64,000 bases of DNA from Desulfobacterales bacterium (GCA_963674755.2 CAXXVS010000001.1:960001-1024000), one strand, 5' to 3'. Positions 14,549-31,586 are shown, counted from the first letter of the stretch. Notes: generated by a model from the letters alone, not told the origin. Numbers and translations are program-made.

Positions 14549-14567
14549 TGACCAACTCCTTATTTCT

Positions 14568-15272
14568 CTATTTCTTTTCCTGCATGGCGAGGTGGGCGGC
14601 ATAGAGCCCGAGAAAGACGAGACTCAGAAAATAGAGCACGTCCCGGGAATCGATGATCCCCTTGGCCACATTCTGGAAATGGGAACTGGCCCCGATATAA
14701 TTGACGACATTGAGGATGGGGCCGGGGAAGAAGAAGAGCATCCGGTCCATCGTGGTCAGGACAAAGCAGATTACGGCCCCTAATATGAAAGCGATGATCT
14801 GGTTGCGGGTGAGGGCCGAGGCAAACAGGCCGATGGCGGTGAAAGCGGCCCCCAGCATAAGGGCCCCGGCGTAGCCGCCCACGACCGGTCCCCAGTCCAG
14901 TTGGCCCATTCCGGCAATGAAGAGGGGGTAGGCAATGGTCGGTACGAGAATGGCGCCCACGAAAACGACGCCGGCCAGGAATTTTCCCAGAATGATGTCC
15001 CGGAAGGTCACCGGCAGGGTCAGGAGGGTTTCGTAGGAGCCCGTATTGAGCTCTTCGGCAAAGAGCCGCATGGTGATGGCCGGCACCACGAAGGCGAAGG
15101 TCATGGGAAGCAGGTTGAAAAAGTTGCGCAGGTCGGCCTGATCGAAGACAAAAAAGGTCGAGAAGAACAACCAGCCGGTCACCAGAAGGAAGACCGCGAT
15201 AACGATATAGGCGATGGGCGAGATGAAGAAATCCTTCAGCTCTTTGCCCATGATATGGAGCACCTGCTGCAT
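14568..15272 (-). CDS. GldF-like ABC-2 permease
   Basis: KELKDFFISPIAY, TMRLFAEE..GSYETLLTLP, SALTRNQIIAF. Confidence 0.85.
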   Translation of the reverse strand: MQQVLHIMGKELKDFFISPIAYIVIAVFLLVTGWLFFSTFFVFDQADLRNFFNLLPMTFAFVVPAITMRLFAEELNTGSYETLLTLPVTFRDIILGKFLAGVVFVGAILVPTIAYPLFIAGMGQLDWGPVVGGYAGALMLGAAFTAIGLFASALTRNQIIAFILGAVICFVLTTMDRMLFFFPGPILNVVNYIGASSHFQNVAKGIIDSRDVLYFLSLVFLGLYAAHLAMQEKK

Positions 15273-15273
15273 G

Positions 15274-16212
15274 TCAGTTCTCCTTGGTCAATTCTCGGAA
15301 GATGGTTTCCAGGTCCTTGGTTTGCTGGACGAATTCCACCAGGACCCATTCCGTGGCCTTGATGGCGGCATAAACGGCCGGTCGCGGATCCTGGTCGCCC
15401 TGGCAGGTCAGCACCAGGTTCAGTGTATCGGTCCCGTTGGAGGGGCCATCGGCGGCCGCGGTAATACCTTCGAGGGCATCCAGGGTTGCCAGGGCCTCCG
15501 CCCGGTCGGCATTTTGCAGCACCAGATGAAGACGCCGGGATCGGCTGCCGGACTGCTTCAGGGTCTCGGTGCGATCGTCCGCCACGATACGACCCTGGTG
15601 AATGATGACGATCCGGTCGCAGGTCGCTTCGGCTTCGCTCAGAATATGGGTGGACAGGATGACGGTTTTCTCGCGTCCGATTTGGCGGATGATGTCCCGG
15701 ATTTCAACAATCTGGTTGGGATCCAAGCCCGAAGTGGGTTCGTCCAGGATCAGGATTTCCGGGTCGCTCATCATGGCGTGGGCCAGACCGACGCGCTGTT
15801 TCAGCCCCTTGGACAATTCCCCGATGGTTTTGTGCATGATGCCCTGCAGGCCGCAGAGATCCACCAGACGGCGGATGCGCTGCTGCTTGGCGTCGTTTTT
15901 AAGCCCGCGCACACTGGCGATGTAGTCCAGATAGTCGAAGACGAGCATGCCGGGATAGAGCGGTGCGGATTCCGGCAGGTATCCGATCAGGTGTTTGATG
16001 GCCACCATATCGTCCTGGATGGTGAGGTCCTTTATGGTGACCTGTCCGGCCGTGGGTTTGAAATAGCCGGTCAGCATGCGCAGGGTGGTGGTCTTGCCGG
16101 CGCCGTTGGGCCCCAGCAGTCCGATGATTTCCCCCTTCTGGATGTCGAGGTCGATGTGATCCACGGCGCAGAAGTCGTCGTAGTACTTGGTCAACCCTTC
16201 GACTTGGATCAT
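15274..16212 (-). CDS. GldA-like ABC transporter ATP-binding protein
   Basis: GPNGAGKTT, LSKGLKQRVG, LILDEPTSGLD, STHILSE; AAGGAG RBS before ATG 16212. Confidence 0.92.
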   Translation of the reverse strand: MIQVEGLTKYYDDFCAVDHIDLDIQKGEIIGLLGPNGAGKTTTLRMLTGYFKPTAGQVTIKDLTIQDDMVAIKHLIGYLPESAPLYPGMLVFDYLDYIASVRGLKNDAKQQRIRRLVDLCGLQGIMHKTIGELSKGLKQRVGLAHAMMSDPEILILDEPTSGLDPNQIVEIRDIIRQIGREKTVILSTHILSEAEATCDRIVIIHQGRIVADDRTETLKQSGSRSRRLHLVLQNADRAEALATLDALEGITAAADGPSNGTDTLNLVLTCQGDQDPRPAVYAAIKATEWVLVEFVQQTKDLETIFRELTKEN

Positions 16213-16401
16213 ACCCGTTCTCCTTGCAGTTGAAGCACCCGAATGCGGTTCGTGCCGGTCCTTGTCCGGAGGCCGGCCGGGATGGGTGCATTTCGTTTGG
16301 TTGGCCATGGCGGATGCCATGCACGGCCCTTTGGGCCGCGTTGACGGTATTGCGCCAATGATGGCGGGCCTGCTCTATCACGGATCGCCGGAGTCTGCAA
16401 A

Positions 16402-16420
16402 TTGGCAATGATTATGCCTA
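16402..16420 (-). promoter_or_regulatory. Possible sigma-54 promoter upstream of the gldA-like operon
   Basis: Minus strand reads AGGCATAATCATTGCC (GG-N10-GC); the plus strand also gives a GG-N10-GC match. Confidence 0.3.
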
Positions 16421-16574
16421 AATTACAATTGGTTATAGATTTTAAGAAATGGTGGTACGTACCGTTCCGGATGGCGGGCCGAGCGGTACCGGCGATCGGA
16501 CGCCCCGCTTGCACCGGGTTTTCGGCAGGGTGATCCGGGCACTGGGATCGCGCGTGCCTGTTTGCCACTATATC

Positions 16575-16716
16575 GTGTCCATCCATCGATGGTAGATTTT
16601 GGTTACTGGCAAGGCTCAAATGAATTTTCAACCGGAGGAATAGCCCGCTATTTCGAGGATTGAAAACGAGCGAGAACGCCGCCAGGGGCCGAAAGATGCC
16701 ATCGATGGATGGACAC
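16575..16716. repeat. MITE-like element, copy 2 (142 bp, perfect 18-bp terminal inverted repeats)
   Basis: GTGTCCATCCATCGATGG (16575-16592) and CCATCGATGGATGGACAC (16699-16716); homologous to 4926-5117. Confidence 0.8.
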
Positions 16717-16956
16717 CTACGGATAGCGGATGGGGGTCGTTCGCCGTCGACCGACGAACAGGTGATCGCCAAGAAACGGATAAAGTTGCATGCTGTTCCC
16801 CAGGAACCGGTCGTTTTTTCAGGCTGAATGGTGTTTCGGTTGGTCTTTACATCGAGCTAAGCGCTTGGTAACGTTTGGGATACTAAGAACGATAACGAAA
16901 ATGTCAAGACGCCCGAAGGCGCCCGTGGGGGGGCGTCGCTGTCTCGGGGGAGGACC

Positions 16957-17631
16957 ATGGCTGCCAACGTTTTCCAAATGACACCGGAAGTGTTCCAGAT
17001 TGGCGGGGCCGGTTTCACCGCCGCGGAGGATGCGGCGGTCTATCTGGTGGTTGTCGAAGGTCAGGCCGCTATGATCGACGCCGGCTGCGGGGGCAGTGTC
17101 GATCAGCTTCTGGCGAACGCCTGGGCCTGCGGCGTCCGGCCGGACGATCTGCACGATCTGTTTCTGACCCATTGCCATTTCGACCACACCGGCGGGGCGT
17201 TCGAACTGCAGCGGCGGCTGGCGCTGCGGGTGGTGATGCATGCCCTGGATGCCCCTTTTGTGGAAACCGGCGATCCGGAGGTCACGGCCGCCGCCTGGTA
17301 TGGGGCCGCCCTGCAGCCGTTTCGGCCCGATCATGTCATCGCGGGGGCAAGTGAGCTGTTTCGGATCGGCGGGCGGGGGCTGGAGGCCCTGCACATGCCT
17401 GGGCATTCCCCGGGCTCGGTGGTTTACCTGCTCGAATCGGCCGGGCGCAAGATCTTATTCGGGCAGGATGTTCACGGACCGCTTCATCCCGCCTTGCGAT
17501 CCGACCGCCAGGCCTATCACCATTCCCTGCAGCAGCTGATCGCGCTGGAGGCCGATGTGCTGTGCGAGGGGCATTTCGGTGTTATCGAGGGCGCTGACCG
17601 GGTACGGCGCTTTATTCAGCAGTATCTCTGA
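16957..17631 (+). CDS. Metallo-beta-lactamase-fold hydrolase
   Basis: THCHFDHTGG, PGHSPGS, GQD and EGH motifs; GGAGG RBS. Confidence 0.9.
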   Translation: MAANVFQMTPEVFQIGGAGFTAAEDAAVYLVVVEGQAAMIDAGCGGSVDQLLANAWACGVRPDDLHDLFLTHCHFDHTGGAFELQRRLALRVVMHALDAPFVETGDPEVTAAAWYGAALQPFRPDHVIAGASELFRIGGRGLEALHMPGHSPGSVVYLLESAGRKILFGQDVHGPLHPALRSDRQAYHHSLQQLIALEADVLCEGHFGVIEGADRVRRFIQQYL

Positions 17632-18375: not shown

Positions 18376-19140
18376 GTGCGATGCCGATGGTCCATCGCCG
18401 CTATGATGCTGCTGGCCGTGTTCGGGCTTTGCGTCTTCCGTATCGAGCCGGCCGCGGCCGATCCGCCGACGGTGGACAACGCCCTGTATGCCGGACTGCT
18501 GGCGCGCCATGTCCACCACGGGCTGGTGGATTACCGGGGGTTGCAACAGGAAGAAACCCAGCTGGATCGCTATCTCGACGTTCTGGCAGCCGTTGTGCCC
18601 GACCTTCTGTCGGTCGACGAGCGCTTTGCCTTTTACGTCAATGCTTACAACGCCTGGACCTGGAAGTTGATTCTCAATCACTACCCCGGCATCCGATCCA
18701 TCAAGGACGCGGGCAGCTTCTGGCAGAGCCCCTGGAAGAAAAAACTGGCCCGCATCGACGGCCGTCTGCTCACCCTGGACGAGATCGAGAACGATATCCT
18801 GCGGCCCCAGTTCAAGGATCCGCGCGTTCATTTTGCCATCAATTGCGCTTCCAAGGGCTGTCCGCCCCTTTACAACGTCCCTTTCAACGGTCGTGATCTG
18901 GACCGCCAGCTCGATCATGTCACGCGGGCCTTTATCAACGATCCCACGCGCTATCGGCTGGCGGGTGACGTTCTTTTAGTGAGCCGGATCTTCAAATGGT
19001 TTCGCGAGGATTTCCATGACGATATCATCGGCTTTTTCCAACTCTATGCCGAGGGCGATCTGAGGGCCGTCCTGCAAGCCAAGGCCCGGGACCTCGACGT
19101 GGAATTCCTGGCCTACGACTGGTCCCTCAACGGCGCATGA
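18376..19140 (+). CDS. DUF547 domain exported protein
   Basis: Signal peptide; AFYVNAYNA, TLDEIENDILR, PRVHFAINCASKGCPPL, YDWSLN. Confidence 0.88.
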   Translation: MRCRWSIAAMMLLAVFGLCVFRIEPAAADPPTVDNALYAGLLARHVHHGLVDYRGLQQEETQLDRYLDVLAAVVPDLLSVDERFAFYVNAYNAWTWKLILNHYPGIRSIKDAGSFWQSPWKKKLARIDGRLLTLDEIENDILRPQFKDPRVHFAINCASKGCPPLYNVPFNGRDLDRQLDHVTRAFINDPTRYRLAGDVLLVSRIFKWFREDFHDDIIGFFQLYAEGDLRAVLQAKARDLDVEFLAYDWSLNGA

Positions 19141-19202
19141 GACAATGTCTCGGCCCACATGTAAGGAAACACCAGCGGGCGGGCCGCAAAAGGGGAGAGG
19201 GC

Positions 19203-20699
19203 ATGACATCCTATGATTATGACATCGCCATCATCGGCGGGGGGGCCGCGGGCCTGACCGTGGCCTCCGGGGCCGCCCAACTGGGTGCCCGCACCCTGCT
19301 CATCGAAAAGGACGCGGCCCTGGGTGGCGATTGTCTGCATTACGGCTGCGTGCCCAGCAAAACCCTGATCAAATCGGCGCAGGTGTATTACGCCATCAAG
19401 AATGCCCGGGCATACGGCTTGCCGGACATCGAGGTGCCCCCCATCGATTTCCGCCGGGTGGCCGATCGCATCCGTTCCGTGGTGGCGGTGATCCAAAAAC
19501 ATGATTCCGTGGAACGGTTCTGCGGTTTGGGAGCCCAAGTGGCGTTCGGCGCGGCACGCTTCACGGACGACCACACCGTCGCGCTCGAGGGGCGGTCTTA
19601 CACCGCCCAAAAATGGGTTGTGGCCACCGGGTCCTCGCCCGTTGTCCCCCCCATCGAAGGACTGGCGGAGGCCGGCTACCTGACCAACCGGGAGATCTTT
19701 TATATGGAGCGCCTGCCGGCCTCCATGACCATCCTGGGCGGAGGCCCCATCGGCATCGAAATGGCCCAGGCCTTCAATCGCTTCGGTTGCCGGGTGAGCG
19801 TGGTGGATAGGGGCCGCCAAATTCTCGCCAAGGAAGACAAGGACATGGCCGATGAGGTGATGGCGGTGCTGGAAGAGGAGGGCGTCACCTTCCATCTCAA
19901 TGCCAAAGTCATCCGCGTCCGCAGAGAGGGCGCGGCGCATAAGGCGGTTGTGGTCCAGACCGCGGACGGGGAGCAGACGCTCGTTTCCGAGGCGCTGTTG
20001 GTGGCCAGCGGCCGGTCGGCCAACGTCGGGGGGTTGAATCTGGAGGCCATCGGGGTGGCGTTCGACCGCGGCGGCATCAAGGTGGACGAGCGCCTGCGAA
20101 CCTCCCGGAAGCATATCTTCGCGGCCGGCGACGTCAACGGCGGCTACCAGTTTACCCACGCCGCCGGCTACGAAGGGGGCCTCGTGGTGGCCAATGCCGT
20201 TTTCCGTCTGCCCCGCAAGGCGGATTACACCTATCTGCCCTGGTGCACCTACACCGATCCGGAGCTGGCCAGCATCGGCCTGAACGAGAAAGCCGCCCAG
20301 GCCCGCGGCGAGGCATACAGCGTGTTCGCCGAAGCCTTTGCGGACAACGATCGCAGCCTGGCCGAGGGGCAGCGCCGGGGACGCATCAAATTGCTGCTCG
20401 ACCGCAAGGAAAAGCCCCTCGGTGTCCAGATTCTCGGTCCGCGGGCCGGCGATCTGGTGAGCGAATGGGTGGCCGCCTTGAACGGCCAGGTCAAGCTGGC
20501 CACCCTGGCCGCGGCGGTGCATCCCTATCCCACCCTGGGGGAGATCAACAAGCGGGTGGCCGGCAGCTATCTGGCCCCCAAGATTTTTTCCGAAAAGGTC
20601 AAAAAGGGGCTCAAGTTGATCTTCAGCCTGAAGGGGCGGGCCTGCGGCGGCCCCCGGGACCAATGCCGGCAGGATTGTGAGCGGGGGGAGGACGCATGA
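19203..20699 (+). CDS. FAD-dependent pyridine nucleotide-disulfide oxidoreductase (LPD/MerA-like)
   Basis: GGGAAG, redox-active GGDCLHYGCVPSK, GGGPIGIE, AAGDV, HPYPTLGE. Confidence 0.9.
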   Translation: MTSYDYDIAIIGGGAAGLTVASGAAQLGARTLLIEKDAALGGDCLHYGCVPSKTLIKSAQVYYAIKNARAYGLPDIEVPPIDFRRVADRIRSVVAVIQKHDSVERFCGLGAQVAFGAARFTDDHTVALEGRSYTAQKWVVATGSSPVVPPIEGLAEAGYLTNREIFYMERLPASMTILGGGPIGIEMAQAFNRFGCRVSVVDRGRQILAKEDKDMADEVMAVLEEEGVTFHLNAKVIRVRREGAAHKAVVVQTADGEQTLVSEALLVASGRSANVGGLNLEAIGVAFDRGGIKVDERLRTSRKHIFAAGDVNGGYQFTHAAGYEGGLVVANAVFRLPRKADYTYLPWCTYTDPELASIGLNEKAAQARGEAYSVFAEAFADNDRSLAEGQRRGRIKLLLDRKEKPLGVQILGPRAGDLVSEWVAALNGQVKLATLAAAVHPYPTLGEINKRVAGSYLAPKIFSEKVKKGLKLIFSLKGRACGGPRDQCRQDCERGEDA

Positions 20700-20791
20700 C
20701 GGGGAATGCGCCATCGTCTAACCCATCGGCATGGCGCAGAGCGTGCCCCGCGCCAGTTCCCATTGGGGTGCGTACAGAGGAGAAGACAGAC

Positions 20792-21487
20792 ATGGATGCC
20801 AACAGCGGGGAGAATGACGGCCGCCGCAAGGCCATATGGAAGGCGGCCCTTTTTCTCCTGTTCATCGTCGGAGCCATAGGTCTGGTGCGCTACTCGCCGC
20901 TGAAGGCCTACCTCACGACCGGAGCGCTGCAGCAATTCCTCGATGCCGCCGGTTTCTGGGCGCCGGTGGTCTTCATGCTCGTGTATGCCGCCGGGGTGTG
21001 CCTGTTCATCCCGGGCACCCTTCTGACAGGCTTGGGGGCGGCCATCTTCGGGGCCTATTGGGGCTTTGTGGTTGTCTGGGTGGGGGCCATGCTGGGGGCC
21101 GCTCTGGCTTTCCTGATCGGAAGGACCCTGGGCCGGGACTTCGCCGCGTCCCTCATCGGCGACCGGCTGCGCAAATATGACGATGCCATCCGGCGCAACG
21201 GGTTTGCCACGGTGTTATACCTGCGGCTGGTCTATTTTCCCTTCACGCCGCTGAATTTCGGCATGGGCTTAACGAGCGTCCGCTTCCGGGACTATATCTT
21301 CGGGACCGGTTTGGGGATTATGGTGGGGACCTTTGTTTTTACCTTTTTCGTCGGAACTCTGAAAGAGATCTGGGCTTCCGGGGATTGGGGACGGCTGCTG
21401 TCCGTCAAAGTCTTTTTCGCCATTGTCTTGTTTGTTTTCTCCTTTTTTATTCCGAAGGTGATCAAACGGTTGCAGGGCGAGGCTTGA
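20792..21487 (+). CDS. TVP38/TMEM64 (DedA/SNARE-associated) membrane protein
   Basis: PGTLLTGLGAAIFG, FLIGRTLGR, LRLVYFPF...NFGMGLT; GAGGAG before ATG 20792. Confidence 0.88.
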   Translation: MDANSGENDGRRKAIWKAALFLLFIVGAIGLVRYSPLKAYLTTGALQQFLDAAGFWAPVVFMLVYAAGVCLFIPGTLLTGLGAAIFGAYWGFVVVWVGAMLGAALAFLIGRTLGRDFAASLIGDRLRKYDDAIRRNGFATVLYLRLVYFPFTPLNFGMGLTSVRFRDYIFGTGLGIMVGTFVFTFFVGTLKEIWASGDWGRLLSVKVFFAIVLFVFSFFIPKVIKRLQGEA

Positions 21488-21535
21488 ATCGGTTGGGGCC
21501 ATCGTTGCCATACTGGAAATGGAAAACCGGCTGTG

Positions 21536-21565
21536 TTGACAAGATAAAGCAGGGCACGCTATCAC
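21536..21565 (+). promoter_or_regulatory. Possible sigma-70 promoter for the ABC operon
   Basis: TTGACA (21536-21541), 18 nt, TATCAC. Confidence 0.4.
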
Positions 21566-21575
21566 ATAGCGCCTC

Positions 21576-21693
21576 GTCCTCCCGAACTGCCCGCCAAGGA
21601 TGCCGCAGAGAATGATACGGCAGTAGACAACCCATAGGCTGATGCGGGAATCGTCGATATCTTCCTCGTCCTGGCATGGGCATCGGGAGGGAC
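21576..21693 (+). other. Predicted structured leader RNA (long closing stem with internal hairpin)
   Basis: GTCCTCCCGA-ACTGCCC-GCCA-AGGATG can pair with CGTCCT-GGCA-TGGGCA-TCGGGAGGGAC; inner TGCCG/CGGCA hairpin. Confidence 0.4.
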
Positions 21694-21717
21694 AAATCCT
21701 TTGAGGAGCAAACGCTG

Positions 21718-22953
21718 ATGATTACATATGCTGCTATCCCCAAAAGCGTCCTTATGATGATGGTGTCTATCGCCGTGCTGACCTTGGCGATGGGTGAAGC
21801 TGTTGCGGATGAGCGGTCCTGGGAAGAGATCGTATCGGCCGCGCGCGGCCAGACGGTGGATTGGTTCATGTGGGGGGGCTCGCCCGCGGTGAACGCTTAT
21901 GTCAATGGGTATGTGGCCGAGCAGCTCAAGACACGGTACGCAATTACCCTGCGCCAGGCACCGGTCAAGGACATCGCTGAAGTGGTGGGCAAACTGGTGA
22001 TCGAAAAGCAGGCCGGCAAAGAGCGCGACGGGGGTGTGGATCTCATGTGGATCAACGGCGAGAATTTCCGGACTTGCAAAAAAAACGGCCTGCTCTACGG
22101 CCCCTTTGCGGACCGGCTGCCCAACCAGAAGCTGGTCAACCGGGAGAACCCTTCCGTCTCCAACGACTTCGGGGAGCCGGTGGAGGGCCTGGAGTCCCCC
22201 TGGGGCAGTGCCCAGGTGGTCATGATTTATGATACGGCGCGCGTGTCCCAACCGCCCCGCACGATTGGCGCCTTGCTGGAGTGGATCAAAGCCCATCCCG
22301 GCCGCTTTGCCTATCCGGCGCCGCCGGACTTTACCGGCTCGGTTTTCGTGCGCCACATCTTCTACCACGTGTCCGGTGATGCTCAACGCTGGCAGGGGCC
22401 CTTCGATCAGGCGGCCTTTGACCGGGCGGCCGCGGAAACCTACCGGGTCTTGAAGGAACTGGCGCCCTATCTCTGGCGGCAGGGGCAGACCTATCCCGAA
22501 TCGCCGGTGCGCCTGAATACGCTCTTTGCCGACGGTGAAGTGGACTTCTCCGTTTCCTACCACCAGGCCGAGGCCTCCCGCAATATCATCGACGGGCTGT
22601 TCCCGGATACGGTGCGCACCTTTGTTTTCGACGAGGGCACCATCGCCAACACCCATTTTGTGGCCATTCCCTTCAATGCCGCGGACAAAGCCGGGGCTAT
22701 GGTGGCGGCCAACTTTTTATTGTCGCCCGAAGCCCAGCTTACCAAGGCCGATCCCGACGTATGGGGGGATTTCCCGGCCATCGACCCGACGCGTCTTCCG
22801 GCGGAATGGCAGACACGCTTCCGGCAGCAGGCCCGGGGCATCGCTACCCTGAGCGATGCCCAACTCCAGGCCCATCAACTCCCGGAGCCCCCCTCGCAGA
22901 TTTTGATTCAGTTGGAGAAGGGTTGGCAGGAGCATGTCCTGAAAGGACGCTGA
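21718..22953 (+). CDS. ABC transporter substrate-binding protein, YnjB-like
   Basis: ARGQTV.WFMWGG, VDLMWINGENF, NDFGEPVEGLESPWG, YPAPPDFTG, GTIANTHFVAIPFNA, ANFLLSPEAQ. Confidence 0.82.
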   Translation: MITYAAIPKSVLMMMVSIAVLTLAMGEAVADERSWEEIVSAARGQTVDWFMWGGSPAVNAYVNGYVAEQLKTRYAITLRQAPVKDIAEVVGKLVIEKQAGKERDGGVDLMWINGENFRTCKKNGLLYGPFADRLPNQKLVNRENPSVSNDFGEPVEGLESPWGSAQVVMIYDTARVSQPPRTIGALLEWIKAHPGRFAYPAPPDFTGSVFVRHIFYHVSGDAQRWQGPFDQAAFDRAAAETYRVLKELAPYLWRQGQTYPESPVRLNTLFADGEVDFSVSYHQAEASRNIIDGLFPDTVRTFVFDEGTIANTHFVAIPFNAADKAGAMVAANFLLSPEAQLTKADPDVWGDFPAIDPTRLPAEWQTRFRQQARGIATLSDAQLQAHQLPEPPSQILIQLEKGWQEHVLKGR

Positions 22954-23861
22954 TGATATCGCGCGCCCGCCAAGACCTCGACGCCCGCACGCGGCCGGGG
23001 CCCGGATTCAAAGGATTGACGGTCCTGTTGGCCCCTGCCCTGGCGATCGTGCTGGTTCTATTCGGGGGCGGTCTCGCGCTGGGAGTGATGCAGGCCATGG
23101 GCTATCTGCCCGGCGCCGGTTTGGGGCGTCTGGGATTCCAGCATTTTGCACAGGTGCTGACCGATCCGGATTTCGCCACCAGTTTTGCGCTGACCTTCTA
23201 TGTCGCGGGCGTCTCCACGGCCATTGCCGCCGGGCTCAGTATCCTGGCGGCCCTCGGCCTGGCATCGCTGCGATCGCGATGGGTTCACTTTATTTTCCAA
23301 ATTCCCCTGACCGTGCCGCATCTGGTGGTGGCCGTGGCCATGCTGTTCCTGCTGGCGCCGGCCGGCCTGTTGTCCCGGGGGGCGGTGGCGCTCGGCTTGA
23401 TCGCGGGCCCGGCGGATTTCCCTTTGCTGATCAACGACAATTGGGGCATCGGGATCATCCTGGTCTATGTCTGGAAGGAGATTCCGTTTATCACCCTGAT
23501 GATTCTGGCCGTGCTGCGCAATTCCGGCCGGGAGCTGCTGGATGTGGGCCGCACCCTCAAGGCCGGGCCCTGGCAGCGGTTTCGCCATATCACCCTGCCG
23601 ATAATCTTCCCGGCCCTGGCGGCCGCCAGTCTGATCGTGTTCGCCTTCACCTTCGGCGCCTTCGAAGTCCCCTACCTGCTGGGTCGCACCTACCCCATGA
23701 CCCTGCCGGTGTGGGCCTACAAACATTATAGTGACATCGACCTGCTGGCACGCCCGGAGGGCATTGCCGCCGGGATCGTCATTGCCCTGGTGGTCGCGAC
23801 GGCGGTGGTGCTGGCCCAGATGCTGACCAGGGCCGCCCGCAAGAAGGGAATGGTCCTGTGA
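22953..23861 (+). CDS. ABC transporter permease (YnjC N-half/PotB-like)
   Basis: VPHLVVAVA, WKEIPF, EAA-like GRTLKAGPWQRFRHITLP; ATG overlaps the upstream TGA. Confidence 0.85.
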   Translation: MISRARQDLDARTRPGPGFKGLTVLLAPALAIVLVLFGGGLALGVMQAMGYLPGAGLGRLGFQHFAQVLTDPDFATSFALTFYVAGVSTAIAAGLSILAALGLASLRSRWVHFIFQIPLTVPHLVVAVAMLFLLAPAGLLSRGAVALGLIAGPADFPLLINDNWGIGIILVYVWKEIPFITLMILAVLRNSGRELLDVGRTLKAGPWQRFRHITLPIIFPALAAASLIVFAFTFGAFEVPYLLGRTYPMTLPVWAYKHYSDIDLLARPEGIAAGIVIALVVATAVVLAQMLTRAARKKGMVL

Positions 23862-24652
23862 AGGCTTGCCGGTACCGTTTGACAGGTTTGGCCGTGGTCC
23901 TGGCTGTGGGGCTGCCCTTTGTGCCGCTGGTTCTCTGGGCATTGGCGGACCGCTGGTTTTTCCCGGCGCTGTGGCCCCAATCCTTCGGTCTGCGGGCCTG
24001 GACCTATATCACCTCCACGGCCGGGGTCCAGGTCCTGGCCGCGGTTGGCCAGAGCATGGCGGTGGCGGCCATCACCGCCGTCATTGCCGTGGCGATGGCC
24101 GTCCCGGCCGGCCGGGCCCTGGGACTTTACGAATTCAAAGGCAAGGATCTGGTATCCATTCTGCTGACCCTGCCGGTGATCGTGCCGCCCCTTTGTGTGG
24201 CCATGGGGCTGCACCTCTGGTTTATCCGGCTGGGACTGGCCGAAACCTTGGGGGGCGTCATCGGCGTACACCTGACCTTTAGCCTGCCCTATGCCATTTT
24301 TGTGTTATGGGGCGTTTTCGCCAATTACAATCCCGATTTTGAAGACCAGGCGCGCTCGCTGGGGGCGTCACGGTTCAGGGTGATCACCCGGGTGATGCTG
24401 CCGATGATTCTGCCGGGCATCAGCGTGGCGGCCCTTTTTGCCTTTCTGTTGTCCTGGAGCCAATATTTGAGTACCTTGATCATCGGCGGCGGGCGTGTGA
24501 TGACCCTGCCTGTTTTGCTGTTCGCCCTCATGGGAAGCGGCGATCGACCGGTGGCCGCCGCGGTCAGCCTGGTGTTTGTGACGCCGGCCCTGGTGGCGCT
24601 TTTTTTCAGCGCCCGTTATCTGGGCGCCCGCAGCCTTGCCGGAGTGCGCTGA
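23858..24652 (+). CDS. ABC transporter permease (YnjC C-half/PotC-like)
   Basis: RWFFPALWP, EDQARSLGAS EAA loop, SWSQYLSTLIIGGG. Confidence 0.85.
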   Translation: MKACRYRLTGLAVVLAVGLPFVPLVLWALADRWFFPALWPQSFGLRAWTYITSTAGVQVLAAVGQSMAVAAITAVIAVAMAVPAGRALGLYEFKGKDLVSILLTLPVIVPPLCVAMGLHLWFIRLGLAETLGGVIGVHLTFSLPYAIFVLWGVFANYNPDFEDQARSLGASRFRVITRVMLPMILPGISVAALFAFLLSWSQYLSTLIIGGGRVMTLPVLLFALMGSGDRPVAAAVSLVFVTPALVALFFSARYLGARSLAGVR

Positions 24653-25689
24653 TGGGGAATCTGAGCTTGCACAATCTGACCGTCGGCTACGGGCGCCGGA
24701 ACATCATCCAGGGCTTCCAGCTCGATGTGCGTGACGGCGAGTTGGTTTCCCTGCTGGGCCCCAGCGGGGCCGGCAAAACCACGATCCTGAAAGTCGTGGC
24801 CGGCCTGCTGCCGCCCACCGGGGGCGATATCCTGATCGACGGGCGGTCGGTGATCGGCCTGGCCCCTGAGCAGCGCGACGCCGTGATGGTATTCCAGAAG
24901 CCGTTGCTGTTTCCGTTTATGAATGTGGAACAAAACATCGCTTTCGGTCTCCGCATGCAGAAGCGACACCCGGCCGAAGCCCGCCAAAACGTCGCAGAAA
25001 TTCTCTCCCTGACCCGCCTCGCAGGCCTGGAAGGGCGCAAGGTGCATGCCTTATCCGGCGGTCAGCAGCAGAGGGTGGCCCTGGCAAGGGCCCTGGTTCT
25101 GAAACCCTCGGTGCTGCTGCTGGACGAACCCCTCAGCAATCTGGATGCCAACCTGCGTCAGCGGATGCGGGACCTCATTCAGACCATTCAAGCGGAAACC
25201 GGCATGACCATGCTTTTTGTCACCCACGACCAGTCCGAGGCGCTTACGATATCCCATCGGGTGGCCCTGCTGCTGGACGGCCGGCTACGACAGGTGGGCA
25301 CGCCCCGTGAACTGTTCCATCAGCCGGCCGATCCGGAGGTGGCGCGCTTTTTCGGGGGGAAGAATTTTTTCCAGGGACGGGTGCAGGACGAACTTTTTAT
25401 CGCGGACTTCGGTCAATTTCTCGTGGGCCGCCAGGCGGGCAACGGCCATTTGCGGACGGCTACGGTCCGCCCCGAAGACATCATCATTGCACCGCGCCGC
25501 AAGGATTCCACGGCAGCGCTGACCGGGCGGATCGTCAAGGTGAACTTTGAAGGCAGTGCCACCCGGATCGTGGTGGCCTGCGCGGCCGGTGAGTTCATGG
25601 TGTTGACCGCCCAGGATCGGTTTACCCCCGGTGATGAGGTGGAACTGACGCTGCCGCCGGAGAAAATCAGGCTATTTCCCCTGCCCTAG
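24652..25689 (+). CDS. ABC transporter ATP-binding protein with C-terminal TOBE domain
   Basis: GPSGAGKTT, LSGGQQQRVALAR, LLLDEPLSNLD, FVTHDQ. Confidence 0.93.
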   Translation: MGNLSLHNLTVGYGRRNIIQGFQLDVRDGELVSLLGPSGAGKTTILKVVAGLLPPTGGDILIDGRSVIGLAPEQRDAVMVFQKPLLFPFMNVEQNIAFGLRMQKRHPAEARQNVAEILSLTRLAGLEGRKVHALSGGQQQRVALARALVLKPSVLLLDEPLSNLDANLRQRMRDLIQTIQAETGMTMLFVTHDQSEALTISHRVALLLDGRLRQVGTPRELFHQPADPEVARFFGGKNFFQGRVQDELFIADFGQFLVGRQAGNGHLRTATVRPEDIIIAPRRKDSTAALTGRIVKVNFEGSATRIVVACAAGEFMVLTAQDRFTPGDEVELTLPPEKIRLFPLP

Positions 25690-25758
25690 CCGTCGCTAAT
25701 GCGGCCTGGCAAGAGGACCGGGAGTCCGGAGCGTATTCCAGGTTAGGAGAATTCTTCA

Positions 25759-26793
25759 GTGTCCGATCGGATTGCCGCCCTGCCGGCCCGGATTGAGGCC
25801 TATCTGCGCCAGGGGGACTGGTCCCATTTGCCGATGCTGGCCGGCCGCCCCTTATCGGTCAGCCTGCTGGCCCGGGGAGAATACAACCTGAATTACCGGG
25901 TTCGGGCCGGCGAAGAAACCCTCGTTTTCCGGGTGAACATGGGCACCCAGATCGAGCGGGACGATCAGATTCAGTATGAATTCGCGGCGCTCAAGCTTCT
26001 GGAGGGCAGCGGCGTCACCCCCCATCCCTATTTCGTGGACGACTCCCGCACCTTTTTCGATCAGGGCATCGGGATCATGGAATTTCTGCCCGGCCGCCCT
26101 TTGGACTACACCACCGATCTCGATGCGGCGGCCGCCCTGCTGGCGCGGGTTCACCAGACGGCGGTTCCGGACGATCATCATCTCATCCGGGAGGAAGCCC
26201 CCCTGGATCTGATCTACCGGGAATGCGCCGGCCTGCTCGATACCTATTTTGAATCCGATCTGGCCGACCGGGCCATTGCCGCTTTTTTGCGCGAGGTTTT
26301 GGACTGGGCCGCACAAGCCCGCCGGCAGGAACGCTTCTACCAGGAAGACCCCTGGCCCTGCATTGTCAATACCGAGGTCAACTCGGGCAATTTCATCGTC
26401 AACCCCGATCGGCAGACCATTCACCTGGTGGATTGGGAAATGCCCCGCTGGGGGGATCCTTCCCAGGACCTCAGCCATTTCTGCTCGCCGTTGACCACTC
26501 TCTGGAAGACTGATTTCCGGATGACGCCAGGGGTAAAAATGCATTTTCTTAAAACCTATACCCGCCACCTTCACGACCCGCACCTGCGCGACACCCTGTT
26601 CGAGCGGGTGCGATTACGCGACCCCTTTGTCTATCTGCGGGGCATATCATGGTCGGCCATGGGGTGGGTGGCTTACCAGACGCAGTTTGCCGGAATGAAA
26701 AATCCTGACACCTGGGAGACGCTGCAGCGCTATCTGGATCTGGCGTTTATGCGCTCCCTTTTCGAACCTTTCATGCGGACGGCGGCATGCTGA
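25759..26793 (+). CDS. APH/choline-kinase-like phosphotransferase
   Basis: GEYNLNY, LVFR, Brenner-like IVNTEVNSGNF, LVDWE...GDPSQDL. Confidence 0.75.
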   Translation: MSDRIAALPARIEAYLRQGDWSHLPMLAGRPLSVSLLARGEYNLNYRVRAGEETLVFRVNMGTQIERDDQIQYEFAALKLLEGSGVTPHPYFVDDSRTFFDQGIGIMEFLPGRPLDYTTDLDAAAALLARVHQTAVPDDHHLIREEAPLDLIYRECAGLLDTYFESDLADRAIAAFLREVLDWAAQARRQERFYQEDPWPCIVNTEVNSGNFIVNPDRQTIHLVDWEMPRWGDPSQDLSHFCSPLTTLWKTDFRMTPGVKMHFLKTYTRHLHDPHLRDTLFERVRLRDPFVYLRGISWSAMGWVAYQTQFAGMKNPDTWETLQRYLDLAFMRSLFEPFMRTAAC

Positions 26794-26863
26794 AGATACC
26801 GCCGTCTGCCTTGCCTCTTGGCAGGGACCGGATACCGAAAGGGGACAGGTTTCAGCCGACAAC

Positions 26864-27499
26864 ATGAACCCGCGCGAGCGCCTTATTATTTTTACCCGCT
26901 ATCCGGAACCGGGAACCACCAAAACCCGGCTGATTGCGTGCCTCGGTGCTGAGGGGGCGGCCGATTTGCAACGGCAGATGACCGCCCGTGTCCTGTCCCA
27001 GGCCAGAGCCTTGAGGGATAGGCGAAGCCTGGATCTGGAGGTGCGCCATCAAGGCGGCAGCGGTCGGTTGATGCGGATCTGGCTGGGGGACGGGGTGAAC
27101 TACGTCGACCAGGGGGAAGGGGATCTCGGGCAGCGTATGGACCGGACCTTGCGTGATGCCGTGCAGCAGGGAGCTCTTGTAGCGGTCCTCATCGGCAGCG
27201 ACATTCCCGGCATCACTACGGCCCTGCTGGCGAAGGCGTTTGCGGAGATCGAAGCGGGGAAGGTGGTTTTGGGGCCGGCCACGGACGGCGGCTATTACCT
27301 TATCGGATTGACGGCGCTTGATATGAGCGCGGCGTCGTCGGCGATTTTCGCGGATATGCCCTGGGGGACGGCCGTGGTGCTCCAAGAGACCTGCCGCCGG
27401 CTGGCGCGTGTGGGACTTTGCTATACACTTCTTGATTCGTTAACGGATATTGACCGTCCGGAAGATCTCAGCGCCTGGGAGCCCTATCGGCACAAATGA
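26864..27499 (+). CDS. TIGR04282/DUF2064-like transferase (CofC-like NTP-transferase fold)
   Basis: IIFTRYPEPGTTKTRL, QGEGDLGQRM, LIGSDIP, VLGPATDGGYYLIG, DIDRPEDL. Confidence 0.88.
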   Translation: MNPRERLIIFTRYPEPGTTKTRLIACLGAEGAADLQRQMTARVLSQARALRDRRSLDLEVRHQGGSGRLMRIWLGDGVNYVDQGEGDLGQRMDRTLRDAVQQGALVAVLIGSDIPGITTALLAKAFAEIEAGKVVLGPATDGGYYLIGLTALDMSAASSAIFADMPWGTAVVLQETCRRLARVGLCYTLLDSLTDIDRPEDLSAWEPYRHK

Positions 27500-28200
27500 G
27501 CACCTTGCCCTGCAAACCTGTTATTTCCGTGGTCATTCCCACCCTGAATGAAGCGGCGCATATCGATCGCGTTCTTACAGCGGTTCTCCGGGGAAAAGCG
27601 GTGGAGGTCATTGTCGCGGACGGGGGCAGTGGGGATACCACCACGGACAAGGCGATGACCCATGGGGTGCATGTTTGTCGATGCACGGCCGGCCGGGCGC
27701 GCCAGATGAACCGGGGGGCGGCCCTGGCCCAGGGTGAGGTTCTCTTTTTTTTGCATGCCGACAGCCGCCTGCCGGCGAGCTATGACGACATCATCCGTCA
27801 CGCCCTTGCCGGCGAGGGGGTGGCGGCCGGAGCCTTTTCCCTCGGCATCGATGCCGCTTCCGCCGGGTTGCGCTTCATCGCAGGCTGCGCCAACTTGCGC
27901 TCCCGCGGCCTCGGCCTGCCTTACGGCGACCAGGGCTTGTTCCTCCGGGCGGACTGTTTTCAGGCCTGCGGGGGTTTCCCCGACCTGCCCATCATGGAAG
28001 ACGTTGTCATGGTCCGCCGCCTGCGGAAAACGGGCCGTATCGTCACGGTCCCGGAGCAGATCCGGACCTCGTCCCGCCGTTGGGAAAGGCTGGGCATACT
28101 GCGGACGACCCTGATCAATCAGGCGATTGTGGCGGGTTTCCTGCTGGGGGTTCCGGCCGCGCGTCTGACCCGCTGGTATCGGCATGCCCCGCCTAAATAG
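27496..28200 (+). CDS. TIGR04283-like GT2 glycosyltransferase
   Basis: SVVIPTLNE, DGGSGD, GRARQMNRGA, FLHADS, PYGDQGLF, PIMEDV, TSSRRW. Confidence 0.9.
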   Translation: MSTLPCKPVISVVIPTLNEAAHIDRVLTAVLRGKAVEVIVADGGSGDTTTDKAMTHGVHVCRCTAGRARQMNRGAALAQGEVLFFLHADSRLPASYDDIIRHALAGEGVAAGAFSLGIDAASAGLRFIAGCANLRSRGLGLPYGDQGLFLRADCFQACGGFPDLPIMEDVVMVRRLRKTGRIVTVPEQIRTSSRRWERLGILRTTLINQAIVAGFLLGVPAARLTRWYRHAPPK

Positions 28201-28217
28201 GGCCCACCGACGCATCA

Positions 28218-29612
28218 TCATGACACATTACCGTTGTTCGGGCCCTGACGCGGGTAGACCCGTTGTCGTGCCTGGGCGGCTTTGACCAGGGTGTCCACAT
28301 GGATATCCACATAGTCGAAGACCCGCGCACTGCGCTTGCCCGGGGCCGGTCGCAGGACACGCCCCAGATATTGGAGCAGGCGTCCGCTGAAGCGAATCGG
28401 TGTCACCAGAAAGAGGGTTTCCAGACGGGGGCAGTCAAACCCTTCGCCGATGAGCTGGCCGGTGGCAATCAAAACCTTGACTTCGCCGGCCTGGAGCCTT
28501 TCCGTTACGGCCTGGCGCTGTTTCATGGGCACATCGCCGGTGAGCACCTCGGCCGTGATCCCGTGGCGGTATTTCAAGAGCGCCCGCAGGTTCTCGCAGT
28601 GCGCCTTGCGGTCCGACAGCACCAGGCAGACTCCTGAATCGGCCTGGTGGGCCGCGGCCACATCGGCCACGATGAGCAGGTTGCGTTCCTTGTCCTCGGT
28701 CAACTCGGAAAGCATGCGGGAATAGTCGCTGACCGGGTCGAAATAGGGCCTGAACTCGGTTTCCCGGAGGATCACCTCGGCGCAGAGCACGTCGCCGCTT
28801 TCCACCAGGGTCTGGGAGGCGATTTCCCACTGCACATTGCCAAGATGCCAGAAAATCAGTTTGGACAGGCGGTCCCGCCGCCAGGGGGTTGCCGACAGGC
28901 CCAGCATGTAGCGCGTATCAAAGGCCCGCACCGCCTCGGTGAAGGTTCGGCTGGGAGTGCGGTGGCATTCGTCCACCACCAGGTGGCCCACCCGGGGGGC
29001 TATTTCGGCGGTGCATTTGTAAAGGCTCTGGACCAGGGCCACCGTGATCTGGTTGCCGAACCGGCGGCGCCCCCCGCCGATAAACCCGATGTCCTTTTCC
29101 GGCAGCCCCAGGAACTGCTCGATGCGGGCCAGCCATTGGTGCGCCAGATCTTTGGTGTGGACGACAACGATCGTGGGCTGGCGCCGACGGGCAATCAGGT
29201 AAAGCCCCATAACGGTCTTGCCGCTGCCCGTGGGCGCACTCAGGGTGCCGAAATCCTTGGCCCCCATCTTGGCCACGGCCTCGCGCTGAAACGGTTTCAA
29301 GCGTCCCTGGAACGTAAAGGTTGTGTCGGCCAGCTTACGGCGCCGGTCTTCGAGCGCGTAGGCGATGTCCATGCGGCGGCACTGGCGCAGGAGGGTCCCT
29401 GTAAAGCCCCGCGGAATGCGAAGACCGCCGCCCTTCACCTTACGGTAAAATTTGAGCTCTTTGGGCGTCTTCCGGTTCCACCGGCCCATTCGTTCGTTTT
29501 CAATCCATTTCGGGTTGGGCAGGGTCAACGTGGCGATGAGCCACTCGGAGAGTGTTTCCGGCGAAGCGGGGATGCTCAGCACATTGGTCAGGCGCATTTT
29601 CAGGGGTGGCAT
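28218..29612 (-). CDS. SF2 DEAD/DEAH-box helicase (ResIII/SSL2-like)
   Basis: PTGSGKT, VVDECH, GLSAT, GEGFDCP, QYLGRVLR. Confidence 0.9.
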   Translation of the reverse strand: MPPLKMRLTNVLSIPASPETLSEWLIATLTLPNPKWIENERMGRWNRKTPKELKFYRKVKGGGLRIPRGFTGTLLRQCRRMDIAYALEDRRRKLADTTFTFQGRLKPFQREAVAKMGAKDFGTLSAPTGSGKTVMGLYLIARRRQPTIVVVHTKDLAHQWLARIEQFLGLPEKDIGFIGGGRRRFGNQITVALVQSLYKCTAEIAPRVGHLVVDECHRTPSRTFTEAVRAFDTRYMLGLSATPWRRDRLSKLIFWHLGNVQWEIASQTLVESGDVLCAEVILRETEFRPYFDPVSDYSRMLSELTEDKERNLLIVADVAAAHQADSGVCLVLSDRKAHCENLRALLKYRHGITAEVLTGDVPMKQRQAVTERLQAGEVKVLIATGQLIGEGFDCPRLETLFLVTPIRFSGRLLQYLGRVLRPAPGKRSARVFDYVDIHVDTLVKAAQARQRVYPRQGPNNGNVS

Positions 29613-29681
29613 GGCATCGGCTCCCGGCCGCTCCCGATGGATTTGCCGGCTAGAACGGGCTGGTTCATTGGGCCGGGACGG

Positions 29682-29972
29682 CTATTCATTCTCCGCCAGC
29701 AGGGCTTCCGCCACCCGGATGTCATAGGCTTGGTTCGGATCGAAGGACCCCTTGCGGGCATACATGGCCGACGCCTTGCGAATCGCCCCCCAGGGAACCC
29801 AGTCGTGCTTTTCCCACAGCTGGGGATCCTTGGCATTCCAGAGCCGGAAGTAGATATCGTCCGAACCCCGGCGGACATACATGCGGGTCTGGGGGTTCTG
29901 GGGGTAGGGCATATAGTAGAGGCCGCGTTCATCTTTCATGGTGGTAGGCAACCTTCCTTCATCGGGTTTCAT
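29682..29972 (-). CDS. Hypothetical protein
   Basis: 96-aa ORF rich in aromatic residues (GLYYMPYP, FRLWN, HDWVPW), co-oriented with its neighbours. Confidence 0.65.
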   Translation of the reverse strand: MKPDEGRLPTTMKDERGLYYMPYPQNPQTRMYVRRGSDDIYFRLWNAKDPQLWEKHDWVPWGAIRKASAMYARKGSFDPNQAYDIRVAEALLAENE

Positions 29973-30053
29973 TCATGGCCGTTGCGGTTTTACGCACACG
30001 GCCCACTTTCCGTCAATTGCAAAGCGGAAGCCTTTTCCGGCGCCCTTCGTTTA

Positions 30054-31439
30054 TCATTTGTCATCTTGCTCCATCCCATAGGCCCGTAGTTTGCGGCGCA
30101 GGGTATTCAATCCGATGCCCAGAATCTTGGCCGACTGGGTTTTATTGTTCCCGGTCTGGGCATAGACTTTCAGGATATGGCATTGTTCCGCCTCGGCGAG
30201 GGTGGCCGTCACGTCGGGGTCATTAGAGCGGCATTCCCGGGGGAGGGGTTTGTGCATCGGATGCAAATGCTTTTGGAGGCATTTCATCGTGATGGGCTGT
30301 CCCTGGGCCAGGTTGAGGGCCGAGTGCAGGATGGATTCCAGTTCCCGGATATTCCCGGGGTAGCCATATTGCATCAGCGCCGCGAGGGCTTCTTCGTCGA
30401 TGGCATGGCGCCCCTGGGTATCGCCGGTGCGCTTGATCAGCTCGTTGATGAGCAGCGGGATGTCATTGCGGCGTTCCCGCAGGGGCGGCAGGTGCAGCCA
30501 GGCGCCGCGGATGCGGTAATACAAATCCTTGCGGAACATCCGTTTATCGATGAGCTGATCCAGATCCTCGTTCGTGGCAGCGATGATGCGTACATCGGTG
30601 CGGCGCGGCAGACTGGTGCCCAGCTTCATATACTCACCATTTTGCAGCACCCGCAGGAGTTTGCCCTGCAATTCCAGGGGCAGGATGCCGATTTCATCCA
30701 GAAACAGGGTGCCCTTGTTGGTCATTTCGAGATAGCCGGTGCGGTCATGATCCGCCCCCGTAAAGGCGCCTTTGGTATGCCCGAAGAACTCGGCGTCGAA
30801 CAGATTGCTGTTCAGGGCAGCCATGTTGACCGGCGTGAACGGCGCTTTGGAACGGGGGCTGGCGGCGTGAATGGCCCGGGCCAGCAATTCTTTGCCGGTC
30901 CCGCTTTCGCCGGTGATCAGAACGGGAAAGGGGCTGGCGGCGTGCAACTCCGCTTCCTTGAGGATACGGATCATCTTGCGCGACTGGGTGATAATGTCCT
31001 GGAAGGCGGCTTTGTTCTGGACCTCTGGAAGCGTATCCCGCTTGTCCATGTCCAGGATATCCAGCAGGCGTTTGCGCTCCAGGGCCCGGTTGACGGTCAT
31101 GGACAGATCTTCTTCACGAACCGGTTTGACGAGGTAGTCATAAGCCCCTTTTTTGAGGCATTTGACCGACACGCGGGCCTCGTTCAAGGCCGTTATCATG
31201 ACGCATTCGGTATTGGGGCTGGTGTTTTTGATAATTTCGAGCAGTTCCATGCCATCCATCTCCGGCATGGTCACATCAATCAGGGCCACGTCGAAGGTCT
31301 CACCGGCATCGAAGCGGTTGGCCGCTTCCAGGGGATCGTCAATGCAGATAATATCCTGAAAACCGATGCTTTTCAGCTTCAACAGAACGATTTCCAGATA
31401 ATCGCGGTCATCGTCAATGACAAGAATGCGGTTGGACAT
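30054..31439 (-). CDS. Sigma-54-dependent response regulator (NtrC family)
   Basis: REC domain, GESGTGKE, GAFTGA, LFLDEIG, YPGNIRELE, Fis-type HTH. Confidence 0.94.
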   Translation of the reverse strand: MSNRILVIDDDRDYLEIVLLKLKSIGFQDIICIDDPLEAANRFDAGETFDVALIDVTMPEMDGMELLEIIKNTSPNTECVMITALNEARVSVKCLKKGAYDYLVKPVREEDLSMTVNRALERKRLLDILDMDKRDTLPEVQNKAAFQDIITQSRKMIRILKEAELHAASPFPVLITGESGTGKELLARAIHAASPRSKAPFTPVNMAALNSNLFDAEFFGHTKGAFTGADHDRTGYLEMTNKGTLFLDEIGILPLELQGKLLRVLQNGEYMKLGTSLPRRTDVRIIAATNEDLDQLIDKRMFRKDLYYRIRGAWLHLPPLRERRNDIPLLINELIKRTGDTQGRHAIDEEALAALMQYGYPGNIRELESILHSALNLAQGQPITMKCLQKHLHPMHKPLPRECRSNDPDVTATLAEAEQCHILKVYAQTGNNKTQSAKILGIGLNTLRRKLRAYGMEQDDK

Positions 31440-31586
31440 GGCAGCGACCTCGACAGAAAGCGGATCCACGTCATACGAAAACGTGCTCGATTCCCGGGCG
31501 ATTCGTTTCAGGCCTGGTACCACAATGCCGCGGGGGGAGGCATCGACTAGTATCCCGGGCCCTTGTCCCCCGAACGGCCATACAGA

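Follow-up and report, generated by a model that had tools for sequence, protein, structure and literature searches.

An importer-kinase operon beside the TIGR04282/TIGR04283 transferase pair

A 64,000-nucleotide stretch of DNA from a Desulfobacterales bacterium (GCA_963674755.2, CAXXVS010000001.1:960001-1024000), referred to in its whole length as the window, carries ten co-oriented, often overlapping genes between positions 18,376 and 28,200. The original prediction read them as an uptake or salvage variant of the TIGR04282/TIGR04283 transferase system, which is otherwise linked to arsenosugar synthesis through the radical SAM protein ArsS. All ten open reading frames are present on the plus strand and were assigned to families by hidden Markov models (HMMs), with YnjB, TIGR04282 and TIGR04283 above their curated cut-offs (Table 1). 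The genes from YnjB to the kinase form a cassette that nearly excludes ArsS among relatives and takes the same site in the members mapped, which bears out the reading as a variant system; the YnjBCD importer and the kinase likely substitute for ArsS.

Table 1 Genes of the operon, with positions counted from the first letter of the window
Gene product	Position	Strand	Evidence
DUF547 protein, N-terminal hydrophobic segment, likely exported, C-x4-C motif	18376..19140	+	PF04784, 86.8 bits; hydropathy
Flavin disulfide reductase, PRK06370-like	19137..20699, likely start 19203	+	C66-x4-C71 redox pair, C-terminal Cys
TVP38/VTT (DedA superfamily) membrane protein, candidate lipid flippase	20696..21487, likely start 20792	+	PF09335
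YnjB-family periplasmic binding protein, first cassette gene	21676..22953, likely start 21718 or later	+	NF008633, 532 bits (cut-off 203)
ABC permease 1	22953..23861 (longest frame from 22761)	+	PF00528
ABC permease 2	23858..24652	+	PF00528
ABC ATPase with TOBE domain (TOBE_2), YnjD-like	24652..25689	+	PF00005, PF08402
APH/choline-kinase-fold protein, N-T-E loop, last cassette gene, predicted anomeric kinase	25759..26793	+	PF01636, 71.4
TIGR04282/DUF2064 CofC-like protein, predicted nucleotidyltransferase	26864..27499	+	TIGR04282, 202 bits (cut-off 134)
TIGR04283 GT2 glycosyltransferase	27496..28200	+	TIGR04283, 253 bits (cut-off 182)

Tight overlaps were found at four junctions (YnjB/permease 1, given the likely permease 1 start, permease 1/permease 2, permease 2/ATPase and TIGR04282/TIGR04283). 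The DUF547/reductase and reductase/TVP38 pairs overlap only when the longest frames are taken, and better ribosome-binding sites precede the later starts of the reductase and TVP38 genes. The gaps in the operon measure 188 nt (TVP38 to YnjB), 69 nt and 70 nt. The ten genes are predicted to be co-transcribed. Promoter and terminator counts equalled those of shuffled sequences, and Rfam gave no match between 16,000 and 30,000.

The C157-A-S-K-G-C162 motif of the DUF547 protein keeps its CxxxxC pattern in all 15 homologues displayed, and this companion also occurs in ArsS-type clusters. The second gene encodes a class I flavin disulfide reductase that scores below every curated cut-off, including those of its best model, NF004991/PRK06370 (472 bits against 620), of MerA (TIGR02053, 360.6 against 454.45) and of lipoamide dehydrogenase. 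The importer has two separate BPD_transp_1 permease genes. The TIGR04282 protein showed a weak match to CofC (TIGR03552, E 3e-6) and a match to PDB entry 3cgx (E 6e-24), and the TIGR04283 protein weakly resembled GpgS and dolichol-phosphate mannose synthase. DUF547, YnjB, kinase, TIGR04282 and TIGR04283 each gave a single tblastn match in the genome, and the closest relatives are metagenome-assembled genomes labeled Desulfobacterales, Desulfobacteraceae or delta proteobacterium.

As originally noted, the window holds no radical SAM or methyltransferase gene, and all genome matches of both kinds fall outside it. ArsS is absent from the genome (97% complete), the best TIGR04167 score being 46 bits against a cut-off of 300, with no DUF3641/PF12345 match. 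TIGR04169 gave no tblastn match in the genome at 1e-15 with one query, and the operon has no open reading frame for it. A single ArsM over the cut-off lies in a separate cluster on contig C3, adjoining what we take, by recognition of the sequence and not by HMM, to be an Acr3-like transporter gene. A YnjF-like CDP-alcohol phosphatidyltransferase is absent from the operon and gave no genome match at 1e-15 with one YnjF-like query. Because ArsS is absent, the operon falls outside the ArsS biosynthetic cluster, and most likely it feeds the same transferases by uptake.

The cassette and ArsS nearly exclude each other

One sample of 201 Desulfobacterales genomes (the order sample) was searched six times, identifying YnjB in 26, ArsS in 63, TIGR04283 in 147, the kinase in 20, ArsM over the cut-off in 95 and DUF3641 in 62. 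Kinase-positive genomes were defined by E<1e-100, leaving out seven weaker matches (six at 29-33% identity and one remnant). All 20 of them also harbor YnjB and TIGR04283, the latter present in 127 of the 181 others. ArsS was found in 1 of the 20 kinase-positive genomes compared to 62 of the 181 others (Fisher p 0.005), and the difference widened among TIGR04283-positive genomes (1/20 versus 56/127; p 0.0004). The complementary distribution suggested by the original prediction thus held for ArsS. Complementarity of the kinase with ArsM was rejected, as 13 of the 20 kinase-positive genomes have ArsM.

Since related genomes are not independent, the exclusion was tested within genera. Exactly one module is present in 20 of the 23 genomes of genus g184, with ArsS in 9, the kinase in 13, both in 1 and neither in 2 (p 0.0007; p 0.013 on the 18 genomes outside the order sample). 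The genome with both, G453, shows 8% contamination, and the two with neither are 77% and 85% complete. Genus g200 (27 genomes) has ArsS in 5, the kinase in 10 (counting one frameshifted and one partial copy), both in none and neither in 12 (p 0.12). The exclusion is genome-wide and also applies where ArsS belongs to another lineage and lies at another locus, as in g200.

The arrangement DUF547-reductase-TVP38-(pentose phosphate genes, aconitase, icd)-X-TIGR04282/TIGR04283 recurs in many relatives. Directly after icd, X is TIGR04169 plus ArsS in eight genomes and YnjB in two; within g184 alone, the former was seen in G258, G321 and G364 and the latter in G398 and G427. After aconitase, X is YnjB in G372, G387 and G433 and empty in G274 and G332. 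The ArsS-positive genome G405, with its ArsS elsewhere, retains a 55-residue C-terminal kinase remnant between aconitase and TIGR04282 (L085:10495-10659), a trace of cassette loss. A TIGR04282 tree of 84 rows, built by a quick IQ-TREE search with the Shimodaira-Hasegawa-like approximate likelihood ratio test (SH-aLRT) only and leaving out short or unfetched copies, contains a 28-row clade (SH-aLRT 90) in which 14 kinase-type, 12 ArsS-type and 2 rows with neither, and none with both, are interleaved. On the basis of the shared site and this interleaved clade, the importer plus kinase behaves as a swappable alternative to ArsS plus TIGR04169.

Conservation of the linkage and other contexts of YnjBCD

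Around the kinase in 16 genome loci, some from the same genomes as the order sample so that the two sets are not independent, the importer ATPase lies upstream in all 14 loci with room, and the arrangement is therefore not due to chance; TIGR04282 is present in 12 of the 16. Among the best 80 of 313 metagenome loci, many of them short, the ATPase immediately precedes the kinase in 62 of the 68 with room, stands one gene away in 1 and is missing in 5, while TIGR04282 directly follows the kinase in 32 of the 60 with room; ArsS was found in none of these 80 loci. Outside the order, G148 shows YnjBCD-kinase-TIGR04282-TIGR04283 followed by a CDP-alcohol phosphatidyltransferase-like gene. The importer and kinase genes are thus kept beside the transferases elsewhere, a point on which the original prediction had made itself depend.

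YnjB was over its cut-off in 2 of 251 genomes drawn across the phylum. In other taxa, YnjBCD is mostly found beside a YnjF-like CDP-alcohol phosphatidyltransferase, not the transferase pair, often together with TVP38 and the same reductase family, and in one context behind a nucleoside hydrolase. TIGR04282/TIGR04283 was present in none of 12 non-Desulfobacterota YnjB loci (12 of 77 records, 15-25 kb each), judged by annotation with tblastn added for six. The phosphatidyltransferase context would fit a second, direct route to lipid. The suggestion that the operon gives YnjBCD a pathway context is too narrow, because YnjBCD elsewhere mostly accompanies the YnjF-like enzyme, making this one of at least two contexts.

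Further variants of YnjB loci were also noted. A radical SAM/SPASM-like gene and an ATPase precede a second YnjB type, about 42% identical (L106:11264-12307 in G274; L107 in G332). A Klebsiella plasmid (L236) carries a TVP38/reductase-TIGR03169-like oxidoreductase-YnjBCD-YnjF module, and near-identical YnjB matches occur on 24 enterobacterial plasmid records (H27-H50), only one of which was read. An arsenic link through the GAPDH-like genes beside YnjB in G148 and Aliiroseovarius was rejected, as these score 328 and 264 against the cut-off of 450 for ArsJ-associated GAPDH and match better as E4PD/GAPDH-I.

The kinase and the binding protein

The catalytic loop of the kinase reads N-T-E-V-N-x-G-N in all 30 aligned sequences, with the other motifs invariant. 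The canonical APH loop is H-x-D, and kinase relatives at 28-31% identity keep H-T-D. The kinase model (predicted local distance difference test, pLDDT, 80.8) has an APH/choline-kinase fold, with a top match of Z 21.7 and a root-mean-square deviation of 3.3 over 304 aligned residues. The anomeric kinases MtnK (Z 16.6-16.8), NahK (16.8) and maltokinase (17.4) are exceeded by several other APH-fold entries. An ESM Atlas search with the kinase returned APH clusters only, and the plasmid collection gave no match to it.

The YnjB model (pLDDT 84.4) has a sugar/polyamine-type binding-protein fold with near-tied matches to sugar, polyamine, thiamine and iron binding proteins (Z 23.5 for thiamine, 25.4 for PotD and 27.3 for MalE3, all at 13-16% identity). 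A PDB sequence search gave no match with YnjB alone and only weak polyamine-binding matches with a profile. For the permeases and the ATPase, the highest scores were to polyamine and aminoethylphosphonate importers. Neither the kinase fold nor the YnjB fold identified a substrate.

De novo clusters and other possible supply modules

An Acinetobacter plasmid cluster comprises arsS, a TVP38/reductase fusion, DUF547, TIGR04283, TIGR04282, an ArsM-like methyltransferase (177 bits, below the cut-off), a phosphate transporter, mtnP and a sterol desaturase. Its ArsS, methyltransferase, phosphate transporter and methylthioadenosine phosphorylase stand where the importer and kinase would be. In G308, ArsS and the fused transferases are separated by a methylthioadenosine phosphorylase-like gene. 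Established phosphorylase chemistry on DDMAA would release 5-dimethylarsinoyl-ribose 1-phosphate, which is also what an MtnK-like kinase would produce from the free sugar. DDMAA is formed by ArsS through adenosylation of dimethylarsenite, and the sole characterized family member makes this compound (PMC13598754). The complete arsS cluster is on an Acinetobacter portensis plasmid (L240:3429-12486) whose name includes NDM-1.

A fusion of about 1040 residues that joins radical SAM-SPASM, ArsM-like methyltransferase and DUF5714 domains was found in 20 of the 201 genomes, none of which has ArsS or the kinase, and adjoins TIGR04283 in 5 genomes; one fusion was scanned, and the others were recognized from their ArsM-domain match and frame length. 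It looks like a third supply module and is a candidate one-protein arsenic methylase-adenosylase. Examples lie in TIGR04282/DUF3047/TIGR04283 operons (L118:14001-17141 in G300, L165, L171, L180 and L181). Their identification as DUF3641-type ArsS proteins missed by the HMM was rejected, as a PF12345 search returned ArsS-positive genomes only.

Other families were also seen in or near such operons. A different radical SAM family occurs in TVP38-reductase-TIGR04282/TIGR04283 operons of ArsS-negative genomes (L121:5235-6323 in G312; L122:11912-12907 in G323), adjoining a TIGR04169-like gene in G323. A solo TIGR04283 subfamily is paired with a Gate (nucleoside recognition) membrane protein at L113, L116, L117, L143, L150, L158, L239 and others; this pairing lies beside arsS in Thiodictyon, and G000 has a Gate homologue without TIGR04283 (C2:2380671-2381573). 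In many Desulfobacterales ArsS genes, especially in the cassette-swapping clade, the C-terminal Cys-rich motif contains a TGA codon in frame, likely encoding selenocysteine (L074, L075, L089, L090, L091 and others).

Genes embedded in and flanking the operon

Many relatives carry pentose-phosphate genes (zwf, tal, tkt, rpiA), aconitase, isocitrate dehydrogenase, molybdopterin oxidoreductase and thiol peroxidase in or beside the operon (pentose-phosphate/aconitase loci L072, L073, L089, L096, L097 and L100), and the embedded pentose-phosphate and redox genes suggest NADPH supply or a redox-stress regulon. In one subclade, a conserved protein of 337-353 residues without a Pfam match is encoded between the kinase and TIGR04282 (L024:11387-12400, L025, L028, L029, L030, L032), with a 57% homologue in G000 (C3:2291726). 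Several relatives have a PHP-family hydrolase gene 3' of TIGR04283, and a 58% homologue of it is present at another place in the operon's genome. A reductase paralogue has an N-terminal DEP domain (Pfam match in L032:12185-14176), and a similar-looking gene lies behind a second TVP38 in G000 (L321:6391-8376, C3). Frameshifts in the kinase, ATPase, permease or TIGR04282 of a few assemblies (L017, L022, L104, G477) may reflect sequencing error or decay.

The flanks of the operon (12,365-17,631 and 28,218-33,236) encode an ABC-2-type system with DUF7088/ABC_transp_aux, a DEAD/ResIII helicase, a sigma-54 regulator, an MTHFR-like protein and a metallo-beta-lactamase-fold protein far under the beta-lactamase cut-offs. 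Their synteny is within the genus only, and no link to the operon was seen.

Proposed pathway and alternative explanations

Because the cassette replaces ArsS within single genera, the importer likely delivers the ArsS product or a close derivative. In the pathway we propose, YnjBCD would import a C5-modified ribose, most likely 5-dimethylarsinoyl-ribose or its riboside, and the kinase would phosphorylate carbon 1 to give the alpha-1-phosphate, on which the phosphorylase (de novo) and kinase (salvage) routes would converge. TIGR04282 would then make the NDP-sugar, and TIGR04283, as an inverting GT2, would transfer the sugar, so that the product would have the beta-riboside linkage found in natural arsenosugars. 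Probably a membrane lipid, phosphatidylglycerol, would serve as acceptor, giving an arsenosugar phospholipid; phosphatidylglycerol is part of the structure of arsenosugar phospholipids. TVP38 may move the lipid product, and the reductase and DUF547 protein may manage the redox state of arsenic or thiols. General background to this scheme includes inversion by GT2 enzymes, flippase activity of DedA proteins and the chemistry of MtnK and LicABC. In print, natural arsenosugars are listed as beta-ribofuranosides (PMC10456119), Mono Lake biota contain arsenosugar phospholipids as well as arsenoribosides and free arsenoribose (PMC7345539), and AmgK-MurU is a kinase/nucleotidyltransferase shortcut for peptidoglycan salvage that runs through an alpha-1-phosphate (PMC5371407). 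We consider a 5'-modified ribose the probable cargo. That the cargo is arsenical is plausible, with the balance tipping slightly toward doubt, and the same tentative weight is given to a salvage entry in which YnjBCD and the kinase, in the place of ArsS and its partner, supply a modified ribose to TIGR04282/TIGR04283.

Several observations weigh against this pathway. G253 and G453 carry both modules, 12 of the 27 g200 genomes carry neither, the TIGR04282 tree comes from a quick search without bootstrap, and in G398, G427 and G280 the cassette lies apart from the transferases. Of 126 genomes fetched, 78 yielded a TIGR04282/TIGR04283 pair, and 26 of these 78 lack all three recognized supply modules; two of the 26 have another radical SAM gene in the operon. 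The kinase, whose activity is predicted, has N-T-E where APH kinases have H-x-D, with Glu for the catalytic Asp; its fold scores no higher against anomeric kinases than against others, Foldseek ranks choline/ethanolamine kinases first, and the folds do not identify the ligand. The operon is without a hydrolase to free ribose from a riboside. Finally, ArsS does not track ArsM in the order (ArsM in 29 of 63 ArsS-positive genomes versus 66 of 138 others, in a search limited to about 11 scored candidates for each genome), and the arsenic reading is weaker for it. No methyltransferase was recognized beside ArsS plus TIGR04169 in the cassette-swapping clade, and taken together with the independence from ArsM this means that the local ArsS substrate may not be dimethylarsenite. 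Dimethylarsenic could also come from the environment without ArsM.

The same salvage logic might thus apply to a non-arsenical cargo, with ArsS adenosylating a sulfur, selenium or phosphorus acceptor and the importer taking up the matching 5'-modified ribose or nucleoside. All of the swap evidence applies to it equally, and the independence of ArsS from ArsM, the in-frame TGA in the Cys motif of many ArsS genes (ArsS being often a likely selenoprotein), the other radical SAM families in the same operons (G312, G323) and the rhodaneses and nucleoside hydrolase among YnjB neighbors elsewhere are consistent with it. We nevertheless hold it to be somewhat unlikely given that an environmental source could account for dimethylarsenic, that ArsM-like domains recur in these operons and that the one characterized family member makes DDMAA (PMC13598754). 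It is quite unlikely that the genes share only a stress-regulated operon and no pathway, an importer and a possibly dead kinase having displaced ArsS at a permissive site. The metabolic genes embedded in relatives, among them pentose-phosphate genes, aconitase, isocitrate dehydrogenase and thiol peroxidase, indicate that unrelated passengers occur in the operon, the kinase is without the canonical Asp, the cassette is far from the transferases in three genomes, and E. coli ynjABCD is weakly induced via BaeR (PMC2731931). Against this reading stand an exclusion that extends genome-wide to ArsS of another lineage at another locus in g200, the presence of TIGR04283 in every kinase-positive genome compared to 127 of 181 others, the gene sequence kinase-TIGR04282-TIGR04283 kept outside the order in G148, and the invariance of the other kinase motifs.

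A LicABC-like head-group route, in which a small choline-like alcohol (for example, arsenocholine or dimethylarsinoylethanol) would be imported, phosphorylated, activated and transferred, is improbable. The high Foldseek placing of ethanolamine/choline kinases and LicA would agree with such a route, as would the best scores of the permeases and ATPase against polyamine/aminoethylphosphonate importers and the YnjF-like enzyme accompanying YnjBCD in other taxa and in G148. However, TIGR04283 is a GT2, a family that uses sugar-nucleotide donors, the replaced module ArsS yields a ribose-containing product, and the fold scores are near-ties at 13-19% identity. Returning to the arsenoribose pathway, a broader version would have YnjB-family ABC systems import arsenoribose or arsenoribosides, so that many bacteria would salvage environmental arsenosugars into arsenic phospholipids by two routes, through the kinase, TIGR04282 and TIGR04283 in Desulfobacterales and by direct phosphatidyl transfer by YnjF in E. 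coli, Aeromonas, the Roseobacter group, Bacillota and enterobacterial plasmids. We regard this version as rather unlikely. If true, it would amount to an uptake pathway devoted to organoarsenic sugars, give E. coli ynjBCD and ynjF an assignment, and indicate that bacteria seek arsenosugars beyond only detoxifying arsenic.

Significance and comparison with known systems

Among titles and abstract openings, we found no paper on the steps after DDMAA, the TIGR04282/TIGR04283 reaction, the YnjBCD substrate or arsenosugar uptake; the primary ArsS papers lie outside this coverage and may propose downstream steps. The analysis narrows the candidate ligands of YnjBCD, orphan transporters that also occur in E. 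coli, to a short list and arranges the proposed reactions of TIGR04282 and TIGR04283 in an order that can be assayed. Should the cargo contain arsenic, these anaerobes would be recycling algal arsenosugars to build molecules of their own, a matter of relevance to the arsenic cycle; should it not, the NCBIfam name "arsenosugar" describes these widespread families too narrowly.

The operon shares the transferase pair, DUF547, TVP38 and the PRK06370-like reductase with the ArsM/ArsS gene set (TIGR04167, TIGR04169, TIGR04282, TIGR04283), and differs in having neither ArsS, TIGR04169 nor phosphorylase, in its unlinked ArsM and in the importer and kinase standing in their place. With the E. coli region ydjXYZ-ynjABCD-ynjE-ynjF, it has in common a YnjB-family protein accompanied by ABC components, preceded by a TVP38 gene. 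In contrast to that region, it has two separate permeases and not one fused, a kinase with TIGR04282/TIGR04283 in place of a CDP-alcohol phosphatidyltransferase, and no rhodanese or AhpD-like gene. LicABC shows the same order of uptake, kinase, nucleotidyltransferase and transferase, and LicA is among the top Foldseek matches, whereas the operon has an ABC importer for LicB, a CofC-like protein for LicC and a GT2 for LicD. The methylthioribose kinase MtnK is an analogy in how the system would work. The same holds for AmgK-MurU (PMC5371407), which likewise pairs an APH-fold kinase with a following nucleotidyltransferase to bypass a de novo route. Compared to these two, the operon appears to show no specific closeness in sequence or fold and has Glu for Asp in the kinase, a different transferase family, and an importer and GT2 of its own.

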